Positions 12,652-41,320 of a stretch of 64,000 nt of DNA are shown here, piece by piece (positions within the stretch are counted from its first letter, which is position 1; the number at the start of each line of letters is the position of its first letter). Under the pieces are notes generated by a model. The model searched no databases. It was not told where the DNA came from and was given only the letters and a program-made list of their open reading frames with translations. The stretch is from Acidobacteriota bacterium. GTDB taxonomy: Bacteria; Acidobacteriota; Blastocatellia; RBC074. The translations under genes were made by a program, and so were the position numbers. The stretch spans positions 776-64,775 of the forward strand of contig JAEUQO010000097.1 of NCBI GenBank assembly GCA_016789605.1. The letters are read 5' to 3'.

Positions 12652-14616
12652 CTATTGTTTGACATTGGCCACCGCGCCCTGTTTGAACGTCAAGGCGTGG
12701 TTATCGCTCTTATGCACGGTGTCAAAAGCCGACTTTAAGGCGGTGTAAGAAGATTTCGGGAACATCATGCCTTCAAAACGCAGCTCGCGTTTGTATTGCA
12801 ATATGCGTTGATCCTGGGTGACGCCGATATTGACTTTGTAATGCCCGAGTTCGCCAAAGCCAAGATCGCTGGGCTGGTCTGCATTTTCGAGCGCATAGCC
12901 TTCCGGCAAATCCATCATTACCAGGTCTTCTTCCAGCCACGGGAAATGGAAGTAGACGTCGTTTTGCCGGGTGCTGGTCGCGAACATCTGGCCAATGCCT
13001 TTTTGGAAAAACGCCGGTTGCAAAAACATGCGTTTGCCCGTGCGCTCTGCGTACCCTGGCACGCGCAAGGTATAGCTATAAACAAAAGGCTTCAGCGGGT
13101 CTTGCGGGTGTTCGATTTTCAGGTTGGAAACTTCCGCACTGCTCAACCGCTCTTTCACGGCGTCGCGCAATTTGGTTTCGCGTTGTTCCGCGGTTTCGTC
13201 GTCGTATTCTTCTTTCATCGAAACGGCAAAATGGCCTGTATATTCGACGCGCACCTGGCCTTCGAGCGTGCCATCGTCGGTCAGCTTTAAGCGTGCGGTG
13301 CGGCGGATTCTCGATTGGTCAGCAGGAGAAAGCTGCGTTCTCACCATTACCGGTTCTTTACTGTCGCACACCAGCGCCTGAATGCCTTCTTCCTGCCAGC
13401 GCAACATGCCAAACGGAACATACGTGCTGGCGGGATCAAAAAACCGCCATTGATCGCCGACTTTGACGGCGATGTTATAGGCTCTCATGAAATATGGGTT
13501 GGTGAAATTCGGATCGAAAAACTTGCGGCTGCGGTCGCCCAACTTGGCATAGCGAGCTTCAAACCCGGCAGCTTGGGCCAAGGCAGCGAATAGAAAATCA
13601 ATGTCTGTGCCTGTGCCATACCCACGCTTGAGCGTATCGGCAGGCGAATTATTGTCCTTCAGTTTTCGTAACTGCTCTTCGGTAAATCCAGAAGCATCGT
13701 CGTTGACGTTTTTGATTTTGGTGCGGCAGAAATTAAACAAACGCTCCAGCTTTTGTTCGGGCGTTGTGGCATCGCCGATGGTTTCAGTGGCGACACGGCG
13801 AATGTCGTCATTCACCTTCATGAATTCCTTGGCAACTTCCGCATACTGTCTGCCCAAATCGCGCCAATACGTTGCAGGGTCTTTGCGCACATCGGGCGCG
13901 TAATACACCAGCATCCAGGTACGCACTTGATCAGGAGGCGGCATGCGCGATTCTTCGCGATAAGCCGGCACGTTGGTCATTTCGGTGCGGAAAAAGCCAT
14001 CTTTGTCTTTGACGAAGTTGGATGAAGCCCCCTGGAACGTTACAGTTTTCATTGGGTACATCGCCCCCGCCAATGGTTTCAGGTAGTAGCGCACGACCTG
14101 TACGGGGATTTCCCGCTGAAAATACAGACGCAAATAGTTGTCTGACGTCGCGCTGATTTCGCGCCAGCGGTATTCAATGATTGCACCGGGTTCGACCCCA
14201 GGCATGGCGAACGATTTTGAGCGCAATTTGAAGCCGCCAAACTTGATCACTTCGCGATCGAACACGGCGTCTTTTTTCAATTCAATGATGGTTCCGTCAG
14301 GTTTGATCGTGCGACCAGCGACGTCTTTGATGCCGACGCCTTTAAGGTAGGGAATATCAATCTTGCTCTGTGTATCTTTGCCGCGCTCGGTAAAGATTTT
14401 GACGCGCAACAGATGGGTATATTCGGTGGTATCAGTGTTGTCATTGATATACACCTCCCACAGCAACGCTTCGGCATCGGCATCTTTTTCGACGATGGGA
14501 GCTTTTAACGCAACGTGGGCAGGATCAAGTGGCTTCCATTGCTGTGCATAGGCAGCGACAGAGCCCAAACCGATCAGACTGAGCAGCAAGGAGAGTGATA
14601 AGCGTTGAAGTTTCAT
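12652..14616 (-). CDS. Secreted DUF3857 + transglutaminase-like fold protein (core Cys replaced)
   Basis: Signal peptide MKLQRLSLSLLLSLIGLGSVAAYA. It is a paralogue of the downstream gene, with the equivalent core reading YGTGTDIDFLF. Confidence 0.75.
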   Translation of the reverse strand: MKLQRLSLSLLLSLIGLGSVAAYAQQWKPLDPAHVALKAPIVEKDADAEALLWEVYINDNTDTTEYTHLLRVKIFTERGKDTQSKIDIPYLKGVGIKDVAGRTIKPDGTIIELKKDAVFDREVIKFGGFKLRSKSFAMPGVEPGAIIEYRWREISATSDNYLRLYFQREIPVQVVRYYLKPLAGAMYPMKTVTFQGASSNFVKDKDGFFRTEMTNVPAYREESRMPPPDQVRTWMLVYYAPDVRKDPATYWRDLGRQYAEVAKEFMKVNDDIRRVATETIGDATTPEQKLERLFNFCRTKIKNVNDDASGFTEEQLRKLKDNNSPADTLKRGYGTGTDIDFLFAALAQAAGFEARYAKLGDRSRKFFDPNFTNPYFMRAYNIAVKVGDQWRFFDPASTYVPFGMLRWQEEGIQALVCDSKEPVMVRTQLSPADQSRIRRTARLKLTDDGTLEGQVRVEYTGHFAVSMKEEYDDETAEQRETKLRDAVKERLSSAEVSNLKIEHPQDPLKPFVYSYTLRVPGYAERTGKRMFLQPAFFQKGIGQMFATSTRQNDVYFHFPWLEEDLVMMDLPEGYALENADQPSDLGFGELGHYKVNIGVTQDQRILQYKRELRFEGMMFPKSSYTALKSAFDTVHKSDNHALTFKQGAVANVKQ

Positions 14617-14978
14617 GGCAACTTCCTTTCTGTGAATACGCCAGGTTGAGGTTACGATGCGAGCTGAAGCAACATTTAAGCAGAGGTGAAAGCGTCAAAG
14701 GCGGCTTCGCGCAAATCAAAAAAGTTGATGCAATCGCTGAGAACTCTGAGCCGAGTTATCGCCGAGTTATCTATGTTATCTGTTTACGCTCAAACTTTGG
14801 GGATCGCCGATGGCAGACTTGATCTTAAGGCGGCTTCAGATGCAGTTTCAACAAAAATCTGTTGCCTCCTAACCTAAGAAAACCTGCCCTCCCCCAGACC
14901 GCCGCAAACAACTGAACAAAGAGTGAAGCCGGTTTTGACCTATACATGAGGAAGAGGTGTCTGGGGAAATTCTCCGTC

Positions 14979-28714: not shown

Positions 28715-29905
<1,191 letters not shown>

Positions 29906-31496: not shown

Positions 31497-31673
31497 CTTG
31501 TTTTCCTCCTCGCCCGACTAATGCGCGCTGAAATGGCGAAAGCTGCCACGCAAAAAGAAAAATAAATTTCTGCTCGAAGGCTGTAAGGAAACGCTGCGCG
31601 CGCCGACTATTGGGTGTCTCTGGCCAGACGTAAACATCACGTTGTAAGCCGTAACCAGTGAACGAATCGGGAA

Positions 31674-32279
31674 ATGCAAGACAAGACAAACAATCGGGTG
31701 ACGCAGTTACTAAAAGCGTGGAGCGACGGCGACGCCATCGCGTTGGAGCAGTTGATCCCGCTGGTATACGACGAACTTTATCGTTTGGCGCGAGGGTATA
31801 TGAACCGAGAAATGGCAGGTCATACGTTGCAAGTCACGGCGCTGGTCAATGAAGCCTATTTGCGGCTGGTGAATTGGAAAGAAGCGCGCTGGGAAAACCG
31901 CGCGCACTTTTTTGGCGTGGCGGCGCAATTGATGCGGCGCATCCTGGTGGATTTTGCCCGCGCGCGCAATTACGAAAAACGCGGCGGCGGCGCGGCGCTG
32001 TTGGCGCTGGATGAAGCCAACGCGTTGCCCATACAACCTGACGCTGATTTCGTCGCGCTGGACGACGCACTAAAAAGCCTGGACGAACTGGATCAACGAA
32101 AAAGCCGCATTGTCGAATTACGGTTTTTTGGCGGCTTGAGCGTAGAAGAAATCGCCGAGGTGCTGAAGATTTCAGAACGAACCGTCATGCGCGAATGGAG
32201 CCTGGCGCGCGCCTGGCTGTTTCGTGAATTGAGTCAGGCCAACGCGCACGAATTTGAATTGCGCGAAACCAGCGTGTGA
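31674..32279 (+). CDS. ECF sigma factor of the TIGR02999 / ECF43-like (kinase-associated) type
   Basis: [35 protein letters not shown] and [16 protein letters not shown] are characteristic of this subgroup. Region 4 is [21 protein letters not shown]. Confidence 0.85.
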
Positions 32280-32355
32280 TCCAGCCATGCACAAAAACTT
32301 TTTTCGCCGGTGTGGCAGCTTTTCTGGCCAGCTCTCGCATTAGTCGTCGAGGAAT

Positions 32356-34665
32356 GTGCGAATGAATTCTGACCGCTGGCAACAAATCAACGACCTGTAT
32401 TACGCCGCGCTCGAACGCAACACAGCGGAGCGGTGGAACTTTGTGCGCGTCGCCTGTGGCAATGACGATTTGTTGCGCAATGAAGTCGAATCCCTGCTCG
32501 CCTCAAATGACGAAGCGGGCGAATTTCTCAGCGAGTCGGCCTTGAAAGTCGCCGCCAAAACATTGGCTGAAGGGCGCGGCGATTCGCTCACCGGGCAGAA
32601 AATCGGCCATTACCAGATTCATTCCTGGCTGGGCGCGGGCGGCATGGGCGAAATTTACCTGGCCGAAGATTTACGGTTACACCGCAAAGTGGCGCTCAAA
32701 CTGTTGCCGCGCGAATTCACACTGGACGCCGAACGCGTGCGCCGTTTCAAACAAGAAGCGCGCGCGGCTTCTGCCCTCAACCACCCCAACATCATCACCA
32801 TTTTTGAAATTGGCGAAGCCGAAGGATTGCATTACCTCGTCACCGAATTCATTGACGGGCAAACCTTGCGGCAACGATTGGCGGCTTCAAGCTCCAGCGC
32901 GCCGCCGCTGCCGTTGACCGAACTGCTGGACATCGTTTCCCAGGCAGCAAGCGCGCTCGCCGCTGCGCACGAAGCCGGCATCATCCACCGCGACATCAAA
33001 CCGGAAAACATCATGTTGCGCCGTGATGGATACGTGAAGGTGCTGGATTTTGGCATTGCCAAATTGCTCGACCGATTTCCGGCAGAACGCGCGTCACACA
33101 GCGACAGTTTGCTGAAAACCGATCCGGGCAAAGTGATGGGCACCGCGCATTACATTTCGCCGGATCAATTGTTGGGGTTAGAGGCAGACGCCCGCAGTGA
33201 TATTTTCAGTCTGGGCGTCGTCTTGTACGAATTGCTCACCGGACGCCCGCCTTTTGACGGCGTGACGCCCAGCGCCATCGTCGCCGCGATTTTGAATCAA
33301 GAGCCTGTGCCGCTGGCGCGTTACATTCGCGCCTTACCCGCCGAACTTGAACGCATCGTTGACAAAGCGCTGGCCAAAGATCGCGAGCAGCGCTATCAGG
33401 GCATCAAAGACCTGCTGATTGACCTGAAAAACCTCAAGCTGGAACTGGATGTCGCCGCCAAATTGAAGCGCAATTTCGCGTCGGAACCTGCGCCAGGCCC
33501 AAAGCCCGGCGTGCTGGCGGCGAATGACGAAACCCAGCCGACCTTTTCCACTGATGCCGCGCCGCCTGCGGTTGAATCGGCGGCGTTTCGCGGGGATGAA
33601 TCTGTACCGTTAAGCGCCAGCATCGCCCTGCCAGAACGCAAAAGCGGCAAACTGGAACCGGTGGGCGGCGCGGTGCCGCTCGATTCAGCCTATTACATCG
33701 AACGCAGCACCGATCAGGAGTTTCACGAAGCCATCACCCGGCAAGACAGCCTGGTTTTGGTCAAAGGCGCGCGACAGGTCGGCAAAACATCGTTGTTGGC
33801 GCGCGGTCTGCAACGCGCGCGACGCGCGGGCGGACGCATTGTGCTGACAGACTTTCAGTCGTTGAGCGCGGAATATCTGGCTTCGGCAGACAAACTGATT
33901 TTGACTTTGGCCGAAATGCTGGCCGACCAATTAGAGCTGGACGTTTTTCCCAACGAAATCTGGAATTCGTTTCTCAGTCCGGGCGTGAATTTTGAGCGCT
34001 ATCTGCGCAAGGAAGTGCTGAGCAAAATCGAAACGCCCATCGTCTGGGGGTTGGACGAAGTGGATCGCTTGTTCAGTTGCAGCTTTGGCAGCGACATCTT
34101 TGGGCTTTTTCGTTCCTGGCACAACAAACGCGCGCTCGACCCGGAAGGCCCCTGGAAACGGCTGACGCTGGTGATCGCCTATGCGACCGAAGCGCATCTG
34201 TTCATCACCGATTTGAACCAGTCGCCTTTCAATGTCGGCACGCGGTTGGCGCTGGACGATTTTTCGCTGGAACAGGTCGCAGAACTCAATCGCCGTTACG
34301 GTTCTCCGCTCAACGATCACGGAGAATTGGTCCGCTATTGCCAACTGGTCGGCGGACACCCTTATCTGGTGCGGCGCGGGTTGCACGAATTGACTGCACG
34401 CCAGTGGCGTTTAGCCGAACTGGAAGCCCAGGCCGCCGATGACGAAGGCCCTTTTGGCGATCATTTGCGGCGGTTGTTGCTTTCGTTGACGCAAGACACG
34501 CAACTTTGCGAGGTCGTACAAACGGTTTTGCAAGGGCGCTCTTCGGCCAACACCGACAGTTTTTACCGGCTGCGCAGCGCCGGACTGATGACGGGCGATT
34601 CCGTGCGCGATTTGCATCCGCGCTGCCAGTTGTACGCCACCTACCTAAAAAAACATCTGTTGTAA
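32356..34665 (+). CDS. Soluble Ser/Thr protein kinase fused to a C-terminal AAA_35-like P-loop NTPase module
   Basis: Kinase features: G-loop LGAGGMGEIY, VALK, HRDIKPEN, DFG. NTPase features: Walker A GARQVGKT (aa 471-478), Walker B VWGLDEVD, SPFNVGTRLALDDF, GGHPYL. No TM segment. Confidence 0.85.
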   Translation: MRMNSDRWQQINDLYYAALERNTAERWNFVRVACGNDDLLRNEVESLLASNDEAGEFLSESALKVAAKTLAEGRGDSLTGQKIGHYQIHSWLGAGGMGEIYLAEDLRLHRKVALKLLPREFTLDAERVRRFKQEARAASALNHPNIITIFEIGEAEGLHYLVTEFIDGQTLRQRLAASSSSAPPLPLTELLDIVSQAASALAAAHEAGIIHRDIKPENIMLRRDGYVKVLDFGIAKLLDRFPAERASHSDSLLKTDPGKVMGTAHYISPDQLLGLEADARSDIFSLGVVLYELLTGRPPFDGVTPSAIVAAILNQEPVPLARYIRALPAELERIVDKALAKDREQRYQGIKDLLIDLKNLKLELDVAAKLKRNFASEPAPGPKPGVLAANDETQPTFSTDAAPPAVESAAFRGDESVPLSASIALPERKSGKLEPVGGAVPLDSAYYIERSTDQEFHEAITRQDSLVLVKGARQVGKTSLLARGLQRARRAGGRIVLTDFQSLSAEYLASADKLILTLAEMLADQLELDVFPNEIWNSFLSPGVNFERYLRKEVLSKIETPIVWGLDEVDRLFSCSFGSDIFGLFRSWHNKRALDPEGPWKRLTLVIAYATEAHLFITDLNQSPFNVGTRLALDDFSLEQVAELNRRYGSPLNDHGELVRYCQLVGGHPYLVRRGLHELTARQWRLAELEAQAADDEGPFGDHLRRLLLSLTQDTQLCEVVQTVLQGRSSANTDSFYRLRSAGLMTGDSVRDLHPRCQLYATYLKKHLL

Positions 34666-34706
34666 GTTCTCGTGCGGTCTGACGACTAATCAATGTCCAA
34701 AGACCT

Positions 34707-37700
34707 ATGAGCACGTTCACTCTCCCACAATCTGTCCGAAATTTTTATATCGTCGGCGGCACTTTGCGGCGCGATGCCGCCTGTTATGTCGAACGCGCGG
34801 CGGACAACCAGCTTTACGAAGCGTTGCAGGCCCGGCAGTTTTGCTATGTGCTGACTTCGCGTCAGATGGGCAAATCGTCGCTGATGGTGCGCACGGCCTC
34901 GCGCTTACGCGAAGCGGGCGTCGGTGTCGCCGTACTCGATCTGACCGCCATCGGGCAAAACGTTCAGGCCGAACAGTGGTATGGCGGCTTGCTCAGCCAG
35001 ATGGGCCAGCAATTCGACCTGGAAGATGAGCTGCTCGATTATTGGGCGGATCATTTCAATCAGGTCAATCTCGGTCCGTTGCAACGCTGGTTGCGCGCGA
35101 TACGCCAAATCGTCCTGCCACGATATCCCGGCGCAGTCGTAATTTTCATTGATGAAATTGACGCCGTGCTCAGTCTGCCGTTTTCGACGGACGAGTTTTT
35201 CACGGGCATCCGCGAGCTTTACAACTTCCGCACGGAAGACGCTGAACTCGAACGTCTGACATTTTGCTTGCTGGGCGTCGCCTCGCCTGCGGATTTGATC
35301 CGCAACACCCGCACAACTCCCTTCAACATCGGGCAACGCATTGAGCTGCGTGATTTCACCGCCAGCGAAGCCGCCGCGCTGGCACAAGGTTTGCGGCGCG
35401 ATGAGCCAATCGCTACCGAATTGCTGCAACGCGTGCTGTATTGGTCAAATGGGCATCCGTATCTAACGCAGCGTCTTTGCCAGGCAGTTGCGGATGACCC
35501 AACCGTGCTGACGGCGGCGGGTGTGGATACGCTCTGTGCCGAGTTGTTTTTTGGCAAACGCGCCAGCGAACGCGACGATAATCTGTTGTTTGTCCGTGAG
35601 CGTTTGCTCAAAAGCGAAGCCGATGTCGCAGGCTTGTTGTCTCTTTACGCGCAAGTGCGCGCCGGTCGTGCGATTGAAGACGACACCGCAAATTCGCTGG
35701 TGACGGTATTGCGCCTGGCGGGCATTGTGCGCATCGAACGCGGCTATCTGACGCCGCGTAATCGCATTTACGCGCAGGTGTTTGACGCCGAATGGGTGGC
35801 CAAGAATATGCCGGACGCTGAAATGCGGCGACAGCGTGCGGCATACCGGCGCGGCGTCTGGCGCGCCAGTGTCGTTGCGGCGTTCATCATTGCCATCATT
35901 GCGACTTTGGGCGTGGTGGCGCTGCGCCAACGCAACCGCGCCACGTTGCAAGAACGCGCCAAAAACCGCGCGCTGTATGCCGCGCAAATGAACCTGGCGC
36001 AGCAAAACTGGGAGTATTTCAGCGTCGCGCGCGTACTGAGCATGCTGGGCGAATACGAACCACACGCAGGCCAGGCACAAGCAGAAGATTTGCGCGGATT
36101 TGAGTGGTATTACCTCTGGCAGCTTTGCCATAGCGAACGGTTCACCTTGCCGCACAACGACTGGGTGTATCACGCGGTGTTTTCGGCAGATGGCAAATCC
36201 CTGGCAACCGCATCGCGCAATCAGGCCGTCCAGGTATGGAATTTGGCAACGGGCAAGCTGGCTTATGAATTACCCTCTTCGGCGGGCAGTGTGGCGGATG
36301 TAGTCTTTTCACCCGATGGACGATGGCTGGCATCTGTCGCGGCAAGCCAGCAACACATTACGCTGTGGGATGTCGCCAGCAAACGGGAATGGCGCAACCT
36401 GACGGGCAGTCCGTCGCCGCTGGCGTGTCTGGCAATCACGCCAGACGGACAGCGACTGGCCGCGCTTAGCATAGACGGCGTTGTCCGTATCTGGGCGGTG
36501 GATTCAGGACGCGTGCTACTGACATTGCCCTTTGCCGCTGTAGACGACGCGATGTTTGGCTTGCGGTTTTCGCCCGATGGCCGCTGGCTGGCCGCCAATG
36601 GACGCGGATGCAAAATCTGGGACACGACAACCGGACGCGAGCATCTGTCTTTATTGCCAGGAAAAGTCGCCGGACACGTGAGTTTTTCTCCGCATAGCAA
36701 GTGGATCGCGATTCCCAATGCCACGGTGAAAGTGATGGAACTGGCGACAGGCAAAGAAGTCGCCGAGTTGAATGGCCATTTTGATTTTGTGTTTTCTTCC
36801 GCGTTTTCGCCCGATGGAAAATTCCTGGCGACGGCAGGACGTGATCAAGTCGTCAAGTTTTGGGATACGACCTGGTGGCGTGAACAGGCGACCATCAAGG
36901 GACACAGCAATTCGATCCTTGCAATCGAATTTGCGCCGGATGGGCAAACACTGGCCACCGCCAGTTTGGATCACACCGTCAAGCTATGGCCGTTGACTCC
37001 TTTGCTCAACCAACCACGTATGACAACGGATGGAGCCAATGCCGTGCAGGTGTTGCACCCCAGCAAAGTGATTTTGCAGCCGCTTTCATTTGCCCCTGAT
37101 GGCCGCCGACTGGTTTCAGCAACAACAGAACTCCAAAGCGACGGCACGCGCAAACATGGCGTCAGCTTGCGCGTCTGGGACGTAAACACCGGCGCAGAAT
37201 TACTTGCCAAACAAGCCGAAGAAAGCTCCTTTCGTTCAGCCATCTTTTCCGCCGATGGCCGCCAAATCATCACCGGCGATACAAACGGCCAAATCAAATT
37301 TCACGATGCCGCAACCGGTCAATTGCTCAAGACGTTTGCGGGCGGTCCCGGCGAAATCATTCATCTGGCCTGTTCACGCGATGGGCGCTGGCTGGCCACC
37401 GGCAGCACCGAACAAGGTGTCACGATCTGGGAAATGGCAACCGGTCGTCCGCAATACCTGCACACATTGCCGTCGCCTGTTCTAGGACTGGCTTTTGCGC
37501 CAGACGGAAACCGCTTAGCAGCAGTCGGCGTTGATCGGCGCATTGATTTTTGGGACGCCGCAACCAATCGCAACAGCGTTTCTTTTCGCTCGCCTGATCC
37601 TCCTGGTGATGCTTTCGCCGCGCTGGCTTTCACCCCGGACGGCCAACAACTGCTGGTCACACAAGACGATTTATTGCTCGTGCTCGACAGCGTTACGGGA

Positions 37701-37982
37701 CACGAACAGCGGCGGCTAGCGGCACACGCTAAAGAAATCACGGCGCTGGCTTTTTCGCCGGAGGGCAAACGTCTGATCACAACCGGCGATGACCGCACAG
37801 TGCGGCTTTGGGATTGGATGCACTGGCACGAACTGGCCACCTTTCGCACTGAAGTAAATCCCGTGGCCGTCAACCTTAGCCCGGATGGTACGGTGTTGAG
37901 CGTGGTCAATTACAAGTATCAGGTCAAACAATGGCACGCCGCCTTACCACGCGAAGTCGCCGCCCTCGCCAACGCCAACTGA
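34707..37982 (+). CDS. AAA_35-like P-loop NTPase + single TM helix + 14 WD40 repeats
   Basis: The N-terminal module is paralogous to the C-terminus of the preceding kinase (YVERxxD, SRQMGKSS, IFIDEID, TPFNIGQRIELRDF, NGHPYL). TM helix at aa 385-406. There are 14 (F/I)SPDG-type blades. Confidence 0.85.
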   Translation: MSTFTLPQSVRNFYIVGGTLRRDAACYVERAADNQLYEALQARQFCYVLTSRQMGKSSLMVRTASRLREAGVGVAVLDLTAIGQNVQAEQWYGGLLSQMGQQFDLEDELLDYWADHFNQVNLGPLQRWLRAIRQIVLPRYPGAVVIFIDEIDAVLSLPFSTDEFFTGIRELYNFRTEDAELERLTFCLLGVASPADLIRNTRTTPFNIGQRIELRDFTASEAAALAQGLRRDEPIATELLQRVLYWSNGHPYLTQRLCQAVADDPTVLTAAGVDTLCAELFFGKRASERDDNLLFVRERLLKSEADVAGLLSLYAQVRAGRAIEDDTANSLVTVLRLAGIVRIERGYLTPRNRIYAQVFDAEWVAKNMPDAEMRRQRAAYRRGVWRASVVAAFIIAIIATLGVVALRQRNRATLQERAKNRALYAAQMNLAQQNWEYFSVARVLSMLGEYEPHAGQAQAEDLRGFEWYYLWQLCHSERFTLPHNDWVYHAVFSADGKSLATASRNQAVQVWNLATGKLAYELPSSAGSVADVVFSPDGRWLASVAASQQHITLWDVASKREWRNLTGSPSPLACLAITPDGQRLAALSIDGVVRIWAVDSGRVLLTLPFAAVDDAMFGLRFSPDGRWLAANGRGCKIWDTTTGREHLSLLPGKVAGHVSFSPHSKWIAIPNATVKVMELATGKEVAELNGHFDFVFSSAFSPDGKFLATAGRDQVVKFWDTTWWREQATIKGHSNSILAIEFAPDGQTLATASLDHTVKLWPLTPLLNQPRMTTDGANAVQVLHPSKVILQPLSFAPDGRRLVSATTELQSDGTRKHGVSLRVWDVNTGAELLAKQAEESSFRSAIFSADGRQIITGDTNGQIKFHDAATGQLLKTFAGGPGEIIHLACSRDGRWLATGSTEQGVTIWEMATGRPQYLHTLPSPVLGLAFAPDGNRLAAVGVDRRIDFWDAATNRNSVSFRSPDPPGDAFAALAFTPDGQQLLVTQDDLLLVLDSVTGHEQRRLAAHAKEITALAFSPEGKRLITTGDDRTVRLWDWMHWHELATFRTEVNPVAVNLSPDGTVLSVVNYKYQVKQWHAALPREVAALANAN

Positions 37983-38755: not shown

Positions 38756-41320
38756 TTATTCGGTGCGCAGCGCAATCATCGGGTCAACACTGGCGGCGCG
38801 CATCGCGGGAATCCAAGACGCCAGCAGCGCCGCAGTGCTCAGCAATAAGGTAATGACAGTGAGCATGCGCGGATCCCACGGAGAAACGCCGAACAATTGT
38901 TCAGTCATGAGTCGCCCGGCGGCAATGGCGAGCGGAATCCCGAGCCCAAGTCCGATCCCGATTTGCAAGAAAGCCTCGCGCAGAACCAGGCGCACCACCT
39001 GGGCCCGATCAGCGCCAAGCGCCATCCGCACGCCAATCTCGTGTGTACGCTGTTCGACGGTGTAAGCCATCACGCCGTACAACCCCACCGCAACCAGCAC
39101 CAAACCGAGCACACCAAAGAGCATCGTAAGCGTGGCGATCATGTTCTGTTGCTGAAAAGCGCCGCCCAGCACGTTCGTGTACGAATCCACACTATAGATC
39201 ACCAGATTAGGTTCAACGTCACTGATCGCTTTGCGCACCTCAGCTTCGATGCCGGGCCGACTGCCAGGCGCCCAGACAACAATGTTATAGAGGAAGTGAG
39301 AATTGCGGTCGAAGGTGGTGAATTCCGGATCGTCGTATTTGACGCTCTGCGTTTCGGGCAACCAGAACATCGGGCGAACCGGTTCTCGGTAATCGTAGGT
39401 CATATAGCGCATGTCGCGCACTACGCCGACGATCTCAAACGTGTTGGCGTACTGAATGCGATTCATGCCGAAATGCTGACCAATCGGATTCTGGTCTTTG
39501 AAAAAACGGCGCACGAAGGCTTCGTTGACGACGGCGATGGGTCGCGTCGTGGCGCCGTCCTGCTCTTCGATCGTACGCCCCTGCACGATTTTTGCGCCCA
39601 GTGTTTCAAAGAATCCGGGCATGACACGGGCCCAACCTGCGCCACTGTTCTCCCTCGGTCCAGGTTCGGGGCGGCCTGCAATACGAATGCCCTCGTTCCA
39701 GCTATCGCCGCTCATGGGCGCATAGAGCGCAGGCGCAGCCATGCGCACGCCAGGAACGCCCAGCAAGCGTTCGTCAATCCGACGATAGACCTGCTCCATT
39801 TGTTCGGGTTTGTAATCGCTCAGCCTGGGGTTAATTGAGACAAGATAGCGATCCTGCGTTTCAAACCCAAAGTTCTGCTGCTCAAGATTACGCAGACTCT
39901 GCCCCAAGAGCGCAGCGGCAGAGAGCAGCACCAGCGACATCGCGGCTTGCGCGATCACGAGCGCTTTTTGTGCGATGGAACTGCCGCCACGCACGGAACG
40001 ATTGCTGCCGCGCAAGGCTTCAATCGGATCAACATGCGAAGTCATCCAGGCGGGGGCAACGCCGAAGAGAACGCCCGTGAGCAGTGAGACCACGAGCGTG
40101 AAAAGCAGCACGGGCCAGGAAGGCGACGCCTCCACTGGAATGTAGAGCGCGGGCCCGCCACCGCTCTGAAAGGCGAGATGCAGAATCAACTTGCTGCCCG
40201 CATAGGCAACGCCAATGCCCAAAATCCCGCCAATGACAGCCAGCAAAGTGGATTCAACCAGCGCTTTGCGCACCAGCCGACTGCGCGATGCGCCGAGCGC
40301 AACCCGCAGCGACGTTTGCGCGCGTTCTTTCAGGCCGCGAGCGAGCATGAGATTGGCGAGATTGCCGCAGGCGACCAACAGCACACAGCCAGCAGCAATG
40401 AGCAGCAGCTTCAAACCATCCTCGTATTGGTCACGCATGGCGGCAGTGCCAGCACCACCAGGTATGAGATTGAGGGTTTGTTGACGCCAGGTTTGCTTTT
40501 CGCCGGGCTCCATGTCGCCCTCATGGCTCGCGAGCCAGCCCTGGAGTTCGACGCGCAGCTTGGCTTCGACCGTCTGAGGATTCGCCCCGGGACGAATGCG
40601 TCCGAGGAGGTCGAGCCAGTTCGAATTGGGGCGTCTGAGACGATAGCCTTCGCCGCCGAGGAGCCGTTCGCTGTTGAGCGGAATCCAAATATCCGGCATG
40701 CCACCGCTGGCAAGCTTGGCGCCATAGAAACCGGGCGGAGCGACGCCGATCACAGTGAAAAGCTGGCCGTTGATCTGATAGCCCGCCCCCACCACTGAAG
40801 GGTCAGCGCCATATTTTTCGCTCCAGACGTGATAGCTCATGACGGCGACGGGCGACGCGTTTGGTTGATCGTCTTCATCGGTCAGCAAACGGCCAATCCA
40901 GGGATTGATGCCGAGGGTGCGGAAGAAATTGCCGGAAACGTATTGGCCATTACGCGTGTCAACCGGCCCCTGCGCGCCTGAGCGGCGAACGCCAAGCGGC
41001 GCATTTCCCGCTTGCAGCGCAGCCAGTTCAACGAACTCGGGCGTATTTTCGCGGAAATGTTTGTAAGCCTCGTAGGAGAAAAGCGAAAAATTGCCATCGT
41101 TGCCCTGCGTATACCCGCCCCAATTGCAGCAACGGACTTTGTCGCCAATGCGCCAGAGTTCTTCCGGCTTGGTAACCGGCAGAGACTTGAGCAACACCTG
41201 ATGAACCAAGGTAAAAATCGCTGTCGTGGCACCGATTCCCAAGGCCAGCGTAATTACCGCAGTAATGGTGAATCCGGGTGTTTTTCTGAGTCGCCGCAAC
41301 GCTTCCTTCAAATCCGTCAT
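38756..41320 (-). CDS. ADOP-family duplicated FtsX/MacB-type permease
   Basis: 854 aa with two MacB_PCD + FtsX halves. The N-terminal LRRLRKTPGFTITAVITLALGIGATTAIF is typical of the family. Confidence 0.88.
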   Translation of the reverse strand: MTDLKEALRRLRKTPGFTITAVITLALGIGATTAIFTLVHQVLLKSLPVTKPEELWRIGDKVRCCNWGGYTQGNDGNFSLFSYEAYKHFRENTPEFVELAALQAGNAPLGVRRSGAQGPVDTRNGQYVSGNFFRTLGINPWIGRLLTDEDDQPNASPVAVMSYHVWSEKYGADPSVVGAGYQINGQLFTVIGVAPPGFYGAKLASGGMPDIWIPLNSERLLGGEGYRLRRPNSNWLDLLGRIRPGANPQTVEAKLRVELQGWLASHEGDMEPGEKQTWRQQTLNLIPGGAGTAAMRDQYEDGLKLLLIAAGCVLLVACGNLANLMLARGLKERAQTSLRVALGASRSRLVRKALVESTLLAVIGGILGIGVAYAGSKLILHLAFQSGGGPALYIPVEASPSWPVLLFTLVVSLLTGVLFGVAPAWMTSHVDPIEALRGSNRSVRGGSSIAQKALVIAQAAMSLVLLSAAALLGQSLRNLEQQNFGFETQDRYLVSINPRLSDYKPEQMEQVYRRIDERLLGVPGVRMAAPALYAPMSGDSWNEGIRIAGRPEPGPRENSGAGWARVMPGFFETLGAKIVQGRTIEEQDGATTRPIAVVNEAFVRRFFKDQNPIGQHFGMNRIQYANTFEIVGVVRDMRYMTYDYREPVRPMFWLPETQSVKYDDPEFTTFDRNSHFLYNIVVWAPGSRPGIEAEVRKAISDVEPNLVIYSVDSYTNVLGGAFQQQNMIATLTMLFGVLGLVLVAVGLYGVMAYTVEQRTHEIGVRMALGADRAQVVRLVLREAFLQIGIGLGLGIPLAIAAGRLMTEQLFGVSPWDPRMLTVITLLLSTAALLASWIPAMRAASVDPMIALRTE

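Follow-up and report, generated by a model that had tools for sequence, protein, structure and literature searches.

Paired AAA_35 NTPase modules in a kinase and a membrane-anchored WD40 protein encoded beside an ECF43-type sigma factor: a candidate split signalling switch in Acidobacteriota

Gene content of the locus

The three genes described here lie side by side in a 64,000-nucleotide (nt) stretch of DNA from an Acidobacteriota bacterium (contig JAEUQO010000097.1, positions 776 to 64,775), the whole of which is called the window. The open reading frames (ORFs) are found on the + strand at 31674-32279 (201 amino acids, aa), 32356-34665 (769 aa) and 34707-37982 (1091 aa), and are referred to as genes 1, 2 and 3; the gaps between them measure 76 nt (genes 1 and 2) and 41 nt (genes 2 and 3). 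An initial annotation, made from the letters alone, had described a co-oriented module with this spacing, specifying an extracytoplasmic function (ECF) sigma factor of group ECF43, a soluble Ser/Thr kinase fused to an NTPase, and a protein composed of a paralogous NTPase, a transmembrane (TM) helix and 14 WD40 blades. The ORF coordinates agree with that description, and all of its factual elements (genes, domains, paralogy) were borne out by profile searches and alignment. Domain content and paralogy of the three genes cannot be explained by chance. The following features were recognised, in part from AlphaFold2 (AF2) models:

31674-32279, + strand: gene 1, ECF43-type sigma factor (TIGR02999 / PF07638), 201 aa; profile searches
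31836-31838, + strand: predicted phospho-acceptor Thr55 of gene 1; position matches the mapped ECF43 phosphosite
32356-32610, + strand: "kinN", N-terminal segment of about 85 aa of the gene 2 kinase; no Pfam match
32611-33399, + strand: Hanks-type Ser/Thr kinase domain (RD kinase) of gene 2, aa 86-348; PF00069, E=6e-45
33667-34650, + strand: AAA_35 NTPase module type A (output-linked, C-terminal) of gene 2, aa 438-765; Pfam, AF2, Foldseek
34725-35810, + strand: AAA_35 NTPase module type B (sensor-linked, N-terminal) of gene 3, aa 7-368; Pfam, AF2, Foldseek
35814-36053, + strand: one continuous predicted helix of gene 3, aa 370-449, containing the single TM segment; AF2 model
35850-35933, + strand: single strong TM segment of gene 3, aa 382-409; hydrophobicity
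36138-37961, + strand: 14 WD40 blades (two propellers) of gene 3, predicted extracytoplasmic; Pfam, motif regular expression

The sigma factor and its kinase

Gene 1 had been taken for a TIGR02999/ECF43-like sigma factor, and its scores are far above the cut-offs of both profiles concerned (215.4 bits against 126 for TIGR02999; 199 bits against 21, E=6.5e-59, for PF07638). In ECF43 an uncharged motif with the consensus QTTA replaces the acidic DAED of region 2.2, and phosphorylation of its Thr by the adjacent Hanks kinase activates the sigma factor, as shown for EcfP/PknT and EcfK/PknS (PMC13147305, PMC8999054). Region 2.2 of gene 1 reads Q53-V54-T55-A56 (QVTA); it is uncharged, and the DAED motif is absent. 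The kinase gene starts 76 nt downstream and no anti-sigma gene is present in the operon, the only anti-sigma-like gene nearby belonging to a divergently oriented canonical ECF gene. The locus resembles EcfP-PknT of V. parahaemolyticus and EcfK-PknS of X. citri in each of these respects: a TIGR02999/PF07638 sigma factor without DAED and with Thr at the phosphosite, a kinase gene directly downstream, and an operon lacking an anti-sigma gene (PMC13147305, PMC8999054). The sigma-kinase half of the locus belongs to the known ECF43/Hanks kinase family. PknT and PknS are, however, single-chain receptor kinases with a TM helix and an extracytoplasmic domain of their own, whereas in the window a soluble kinase ends in AAA_35 and the TM-WD40 part resides on a separate protein starting with a paralogous NTPase.

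Relatives of gene 1 were examined in 80 metagenomic loci (L089-L168) encoding sigma factors 53-68% identical to it. Where downstream sequence sufficed, a kinase gene was almost always located directly downstream, and the traits that the initial annotation had named for ECF43, an adjacent Hanks kinase and the lack of a cognate anti-sigma factor, are present at the locus and in most relatives that could be judged. Most of these relatives show an overlap of 11 or 37 nt between the two genes, compared with the 76-nt gap in the window. Twenty-seven of the kinases were complete: 16 are receptor kinases with the architecture kinN-kinase-TM-extracytoplasmic domain (WD40-like in several), in eight long proteins no clear TM helix is evident, and three, plus one truncated, end in an AAA_35 module of type A and are followed by a B gene. 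It had been assumed that the kinase itself usually carries TM helix and sensor, which agrees with 16/27 such kinases against 3/27 AAA_35 fusions. The window represents a minority variant in which, since close sigma relatives usually adjoin one-piece receptor kinases, the NTPase module stands in place of the TM-sensor part. The order sigma factor, kinase-A, B, for which a check of synteny had been proposed, recurs in L001, L002, L010, L017, L100, L104 and L106.

Upstream of gene 1 one further feature was noted, with low confidence:

31631-31657, + strand: candidate ECF-type autoregulatory promoter TAAAC-N17-AACCA, 16 nt upstream of the sigma ATG

The general pattern, TAAAS-N16-19-AACCA, was derived from the regions upstream of the sigma relatives and tuned with the window in view. 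It precedes 14 of 86 sigma relatives, with an average of 0.4 in shuffled sequences, and matches the 64-kb window once on both strands together, 0.56 matches being expected. The motif may tentatively be regarded as the autoregulatory promoter of the sigma operon. A scan for sigma-70 promoters between 30.8 and 38.8 kb yielded 0 promoters, and a terminator scan of the same region found fewer terminators than in shuffles, which speaks neither for nor against an operon.

The kinase-NTPase protein

The kinase domain of gene 2 was expected to be catalytically intact and soluble. All catalytic motifs are in place (GAGGMG93, VALK112, HRDIKPEN211, DFG231), and no hydrophobic segment was found in the full protein. 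The C-terminal part of about 330 aa, which had been likened to the AAA_35 (PF14516) family of P-loop NTPases, matches the AAA_35 profile over aa 438-765 with 276.7 bits (cut-off 27, E=2.8e-82) and contains Walker A (GARQVGKT), Walker B (GLDEVD) and GxP (GGHPYL) motifs. An identical sequence to gene 2 was not on record; its best relatives are 78-79% identical and come from metagenome-assembled genomes (MAGs) of Blastocatellia/Acidobacteriota.

All kinases encoded after a close relative of the sigma factor have the kinN segment, which is absent from kinase-TIR-AAA_35 relatives; the latter have no sigma factor, and a sigma factor accompanies only kinases bearing kinN. This strict co-occurrence suggests that kinN docks the sigma factor. 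A search with the 90-aa kinN segment returned no homologues, word-index searching being limited for that query.

The WD40 protein and its topology

The AAA_35 match of gene 3 covers aa 18-264 (94.5 bits, cut-off 27, E=7e-27), with the motifs TSRQMGKS (Walker A), FIDEID (Walker B) and NGHPYL (GxP). Alignment of the A and B modules of genes 2 and 3 gave 30% identity over 248 aa (E=2e-25), so that the gene 3 NTPase is the clear paralogue of that of gene 2 that it had been said to be. One TM helix and 14 WD40 blades follow, as described before; a strict regular expression detects 13 blades, and the 14th starts at aa 1057. The blades are divergent, with a mean identity of 30% and no repeats at the DNA level. 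Hypervariable or recombining repeats were looked for in gene 3 and none were found. Recent shuffling of the WD40 part from a receptor kinase sensor was also considered and rejected, the identity to sensors of single-chain kinases being only 24-29%.

About 110 of 120 members of the B family have a TM helix near residues 376-410, whatever the sensor type; it was found in B proteins with WD40, TPR, CarboxypepD_reg and amidase domains and is absent with PAS-GAF. In the AF2 model the winged-helix domain of B runs almost directly into the TM-containing helix, and the NTPase would therefore sit right against the membrane. Because the NTPase needs cytoplasmic nucleotide and a single TM helix follows, the C-terminal repeats of gene 3 should be extracytoplasmic, that is, periplasmic. 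Two relatives support this topology: in a B homologue from Nostoc a peptidoglycan amidase follows the TM segment, and the one B protein with PAS-GAF lacks a TM helix. PAS-GAF is a cytoplasmic type of sensor, and CarboxypepD_reg as well as NHL/WD40 propellers are common extracytoplasmic modules.

Fold and motifs of the AAA_35 modules

Both modules were modelled by AF2 with high predicted local distance difference test (pLDDT) values, 93 for A and 89 for B, and both consist of a nucleotide-binding domain (NBD), a helical domain and a winged helix. Foldseek retrieved the archaeal PF01637 ATPases SSO1545 and PAB2304 as nearest structures for either module (2qen/2fna being among the entries matched by A), with a TM-score of about 0.6, followed by Orc1/Cdc6, CED-4, MalT, Avs3/4 and NRC2; the NRC2 resistosome is among the neighbours of the B module. 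The PF01637 ATPases and Orc1/Cdc6 rank ahead of classic signal transduction ATPases with numerous domains (STAND proteins). Among sequences in the PDB, the A module found only a weak KaiC P-loop match (E=0.06). Judged by these models, the AAA_35 module is a STAND/Orc-like nucleotide-binding oligomerisation domain (NOD). Of the features by which STAND proteins are recognised, NBD, helical domain with GxP and winged helix are present in both modules, while effector, NTPase and sensor, instead of being joined on one polypeptide, are split over A and B in all loci examined. AAA_35 may, we presume, correspond to the 'Npun2340/2341 family' in the MNS clade of Leipe et al. 2004.

In 54 of 54 pairs the Walker A Lys, the Walker B Asp-Glu and GxP are kept in A as well as in B. 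One of the modules could have been a degenerate pseudo-NTPase partner, which was rejected on the basis of these motifs; from their sequences both look NTPase-competent.

Distribution and architecture of A/B cassettes

An exhaustive search of representative sequences with the A module yielded 9,035 clusters at 50% identity, 1,875 of them at E≤1e-30. A separate search with the gene 2 module gave more than 3,000 proteins whose modules are 62-82% identical, and their N-terminal domains vary (kinase, OmpR-type winged helix-turn-helix (wHTH), TIR, class 3 cyclase). In nearly all of the top 150 representatives the module is located at the extreme C-terminus, behind 100-660 variable residues. The B module retrieved more than 2,000 proteins at 63-75% identity, with WD40, TPR, CarboxypepD_reg or NHL domains at the C-terminus. 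A scan of a genome collection revealed more than 585 loci. The best 80, which were analysed, come from Acidobacteriota, Verrucomicrobiota and Armatimonadota, with single matches in Actinomycetota, Limnocylindrales and Halobeggiatoa. A-B pairing as such spans at least six phyla (Acidobacteriota, Verrucomicrobiota, Armatimonadota, Cyanobacteriota, Chloroflexota, Abditibacteriota). The AAA_35 A/B pair is a general modular cassette and not peculiar to the window locus, which the initial annotation had not seen. The cassette is also multi-copy within genomes, since single MAGs give several distinct cassettes in the top 80: five loci (L040, L058, L063, L077, L078) originate from one Chthonomonadaceae MAG and three (L011, L025, L049) from one Acidobacteriota MAG.

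Pairing was counted for 74 A genes with at least 1.5 kb of downstream sequence. In 53 of them the next gene downstream, in the same orientation, is B, and in about eight more B is found elsewhere in the locus; the pairing that had been noticed for the kinase version is conserved and extends far beyond it. A and B genes overlap by 4 nt in 12 of 61 pairs, which suggests translational coupling. The A-A and B-B distance matrices of 54 pairs are correlated (Mantel r=0.75, against a maximum of 0.36 in 2,000 permutations).

Comparison of the architectures revealed great diversity and a simple division. In all cases examined A is an output without a sensor and B a sensor without an output. The outputs are kinase, wHTH, SARP, TIR, cyclase and trypsin domains; the sensors are WD40, TPR, NHL, CarboxypepD_reg and amidase domains, all with a TM helix, and PAS-GAF without one. 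For 89 A proteins, ten of which were confirmed as examples by Pfam, the output architectures were tallied as follows:

TIR: 13/89
wHTH: 13/89
kinase-TIR: 12/89
SARP: 9/89
kinase: 8/89
kinN-kinase: 7/89
cyclase-TIR: 7/89
cyclase-kinase-TIR: 3/89

Where a TIR_2 domain is present it directly precedes AAA_35 and is often joined to kinase and/or cyclase (L016, L020, L021, L023, L033, L051, L056, L069, L084), up to cyclase-kinase-TIR-AAA_35 in a single A protein.

The gene context varies with the output. A sigma factor gene precedes kinase-A and B(WD40) in L001 and L002, wHTH-A is followed by B(WD40) without a sigma factor in L003-5, and TIR-A by B(NHL) in L006-8. Pairs were seen in cultured or enriched organisms as well. 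Plasmid pNsp_e of Nostoc sp. ATCC 53789 (L169, 4786-11356) combines Trypsin-TIR-A with B-TM-WD40-Amidase_3. In Ca. Chlorohelix (L170, 561-7260) the gene order is inverted, B-TM-WD40 being encoded with a kinase-A-LuxR HTH protein whose additional C-terminal LuxR-type HTH departs from the otherwise C-terminal position of A. On an Abditibacteriota plasmid (L171, 5449-9835) TIR-A occurs with B-PAS-GAF, which has no TM helix. Some loci are more elaborate. In L023 (5889-13617) an A-B pair is followed by a second, convergent A' (cyclase-TIR), L001 has an extra stand-alone B-type AAA_35 protein of 418 aa without TM helix (13589-14845), and in L106 (8002-12465) two B-type genes (1097 and 374 aa) come after one kinase-A gene.

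Complementary architectures, conserved order, overlaps and co-diversification point to A and B as an obligate functional pair; direct contact between them in a physical assembly is presumed. The two could instead be tandem paralogues acting independently, gene 2 specifying a cytoplasmic STAND-like kinase that needs no partner, and the TM-WD40 protein serving an unrelated purpose. About 10 of the 74 A genes have no B nearby, as such independence would allow, but the same gene order is kept in different phyla even though A and B share only 30% identity, so that the duplication must be ancient, A never occurs with a sensor nor B with an output, and coupling-type overlaps as well as the Mantel correlation speak for a joint function. 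Independent action is therefore most improbable.

More weight has to be given to a role in conflict or defence with the kinase as effector, which the initial annotation had already named as an alternative. In this proposal the cassette would be a STAND-type defence system: B would detect a cue from an invader or competitor and A would deliver the effector, here the kinase, with the sigma factor turning on a defensive regulon. Effectors in relatives include trypsin, cyclase and the TIR NADase, which retains an invariant catalytic Glu in about 42 of the 89 A proteins, the fold resembles Avs3/4 and CED-4, and several copies occur in single MAGs. The trypsin-TIR version on the Nostoc plasmid adjoins toxin-antitoxin and integrase genes, L001 is flanked by transposase/integrase genes, and L006 adjoins a gene for a giant caspase-TPR protein. 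Characterised ECF43 systems answer amoeba predation, through a type VI secretion system, and polymyxin (PMC13147305, PMC8999054). On the other hand, many members of the family have a simple transcription factor as output (wHTH, SARP, LuxR HTH, sigma) and PAS-GAF occurs among the sensors, no copies were found in phage genomes, and a scan with PADLOC-DB gave only generic kinase (PD-T4-6, mad6) and WD40-region (HEAT-ARM_XIII) matches and none for AAA_35. The sensor lies beyond a TM helix, while known Avs-type phage sensors are cytoplasmic. At the locus itself, the gene 2 protein has no TIR domain, the WD40 repeats of gene 3 are not hypervariable, and the flanks are housekeeping and transport genes without a mobile element. 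The proposal thus stays alive for the family, about half of which carries a catalytically intact TIR domain, and there the defence reading is real; because TIR is missing, the output is transcriptional, the sensor is extracytoplasmic and the flanks are ordinary, it is weaker for the window locus, and as an account of the cassette it is considered unlikely. Defence and signalling are not mutually exclusive, since characterised ECF43 systems respond to predators and antibiotics.

Relation to known systems

Single-chain STAND proteins such as MalT, AfsR/SARP-NB-ARC-TPR, kinase-STAND, TIR-STAND Avs and CED-4/Apaf-1 share with the AAA_35 proteins the NBD-helical-winged-helix arrangement with GxP, effectors N-terminal to the NTPase, WD40/TPR sensors, and SARP/wHTH, kinase, TIR and cyclase effectors. 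They differ in that AAA_35 effector and sensor are distributed over two polypeptides, each with an intact NTPase, with the sensor usually across the membrane. Unlike NB-ARC or NACHT STANDs, the modules of the window belong to Pfam AAA_35, and their closest structures are archaeal PF01637 ATPases. The latter (SSO1545, PAB2304) and Orc1/Cdc6 provide the best fold matches, and Orc1/Cdc6 paralogues are also heteromeric; in contrast to A and B, however, both lack fused outputs or sensors, have a different or unknown function and are only 14-17% identical.

A division of sensing and execution between two paralogous NOD proteins is known from NAIP-NLRC4 and from plant paired and NRC-helper nucleotide-binding leucine-rich repeat (NLR) proteins, the analogy being one of logic. 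NLR pairs hetero-assemble through their NOD, which we infer for AAA_35 A/B; they are eukaryotic and cytosolic, belong to other NOD clades, and have neither a membrane-spanning sensor nor a kinase-to-sigma output.

Among bacteria the nearest published concept is nSTAND2 (Kaur, Iyer, Burroughs & Aravind 2021, PMC8195603). Its operon consists of two genes for paralogous STAND-like NTPases, which are predicted to assemble into a hetero-multimer, and one of the two bears variable domains. nSTAND2 differs from the AAA_35 pair by one module with eroded NTP-binding motifs, by GT4/HEPN effectors, by its gammaproteobacterial and mobile nature, and by the lack of a described TM sensor. Identity of AAA_35 with nSTAND2 was rejected (hhalign probability 0.5%, E=0.12, and no AAA_35 Pfam match for the single nSTAND2 sequence that was compared, a comparison of limited sensitivity). 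One paper reports AAA_35 on cyanobacterial sigma factors, to which it is fused as an accessory domain (PMC11119718), and there is therefore an independent link of AAA_35 to transcriptional output. Otherwise AAA_35 is essentially absent from the searchable literature, in which no mention of PF14516 was found, and the pair is undescribed in the STAND survey PMC13581612 and in the conflict-system papers PMC7159879 and PMC8195603. The mechanism had been called undescribed, which holds for the cassette in the literature searched but not for the concept, for which nSTAND2 is a precedent (PMC8195603).

A model for signal transduction by the three genes

On balance it appears probable, if by a modest degree, that the three genes form one pathway, in which a split, membrane-spanning STAND-like switch activates a kinase that phosphorylates the sigma factor. 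Gene 3 (B) would be the sensor subunit, with its NTPase at the inner face of the membrane, its helix across and its two WD40 propellers in the periplasm, and gene 2 (A) the output subunit without a sensor of its own. Binding of a ligand to B, or clustering of B, outside the cell would be transmitted through the helix to the B NTPase, which might then recruit, or co-assemble with, A modules in an NTP-dependent manner, much as a sensor NLR nucleates its helper. Assembly of A would bring the RD-type kinase domains together for trans-autophosphorylation. The active kinase, holding the sigma factor via kinN, would phosphorylate Thr55 in region 2.2, and phospho-Thr55 would make up for the negative charge missing from ECF43 sigma factors, thereby enabling the sigma factor to bind core RNA polymerase and to activate its regulon, which probably includes its own operon.

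Most outputs in the family are activated by dimerisation, proximity or oligomerisation: RD kinases by trans-autophosphorylation, class 3 cyclases by formation of the active site at the dimer interface, and TIR NADases and OmpR/SARP/LuxR DNA-binding domains likewise by proximity. This gives the scheme a unifying logic. In wider terms, A/B pairs could constitute an unrecognised, widespread class of transmembrane transducers, a prokaryotic, membrane-spanning counterpart of sensor/helper NLR pairs, in which membrane-anchored B relays an extracytoplasmic signal through its single helix to its NTPase, nucleates NTP-dependent hetero-oligomers with A and thereby activates the proximity-dependent output of A; this generalisation is put forward tentatively, with less confidence than the pathway at the locus.

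Control would presumably be exerted by activation rather than by release from inhibition. In the opposite arrangement, resting B would hold A inactive at the membrane and a signal would free A to form active homo-oligomers, in the way that MalT is kept in check by MalK/MalY or a sigma factor by its anti-sigma factor. Sequestration would account just as well for the pairing, the co-diversification and the complementary architectures, the data agreeing with both polarities alike; A genes without B and A-A tandems suggest that A can assemble with itself, and MalT, a structural neighbour (8bob), is regulated by inhibitory partners. The intact NTPase motifs of B in all 54 pairs, however, would not be expected of a passive tether, and sequestration is regarded as improbable.

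Several points weigh against the proposed pathway with its B-driven assembly of A. The roughly 10 of 74 A genes mentioned above lack a B gene within 8 kb, and A-A tandems occur, for example in L034 (6918-10552) and L037 (1047-3878), both without B within that distance; for these reasons A might also function by itself or with a partner from another locus. Common ancestry can account for part of the Mantel correlation, and contact between A and B is itself a deduction. The TIR_2 domains with catalytic Glu in so many A relatives, and the transposase, integrase, toxin-antitoxin or caspase-TPR genes next to some loci, fit conflict systems. The positive-inside rule favours a cytoplasmic N-terminus of gene 3 weakly (5.1 versus 4.0 K+R in the flanks), and we know of no characterised system in which one TM helix controls a NOD-type switch. 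Finally, the position of the candidate promoter is atypical, 16 nt from the ATG compared with 100-190 nt in the relatives.

How ECF43-linked kinases sense their signals is still an open question (PMC13147305). As the locus indicates, a separate protein can take over the sensing part of such a kinase and be linked to it again via paired NOD-like NTPases. The A/B family is extensive (some 9,000 clusters at 50% identity; at least six phyla), highly modular and undescribed in the literature searched. If the modules hetero-oligomerise, they would provide a new route for signalling across the bacterial membrane, the logic of sensor/helper NLRs would extend to bacteria, and a sigma-dependent reporter, kinase and partner would make up a simple reconstitutable system for a NOD switch triggered across a membrane. 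Should the transducer class be real, it would rank as a modular scheme beside two-component systems, ECF/anti-sigma pairs and receptor kinases, and thousands of annotations as 'AAA-like domain-containing protein' would be explained.

Flanking genes

The window contains one A/B cassette only. According to Pfam the neighbours of the module are unremarkable chromosomal genes; they specify a kynureninase-like enzyme, a MacB/FtsX permease and a canonical ECF pair, and no mobile-element genes adjoin the module. Two of these neighbours are listed here:

28715-29905, + strand: kynureninase-like class V aminotransferase
38756-41320, - strand: duplicated MacB_PCD/FtsX permease, 854 aa

Duplicated permeases of this type are common in Acidobacteria. 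The canonical ECF sigma factor gene (PF04542/PF08281; 30095-31496, - strand, including the gene that follows) is oriented divergently to the ECF43 gene. The gene after it specifies a 246-aa protein consisting of a zinc ribbon, a TM helix and a domain similar to pseudopilin G of type II secretion systems (T2SS-G, PF08334), which would be an odd architecture for an anti-sigma factor.

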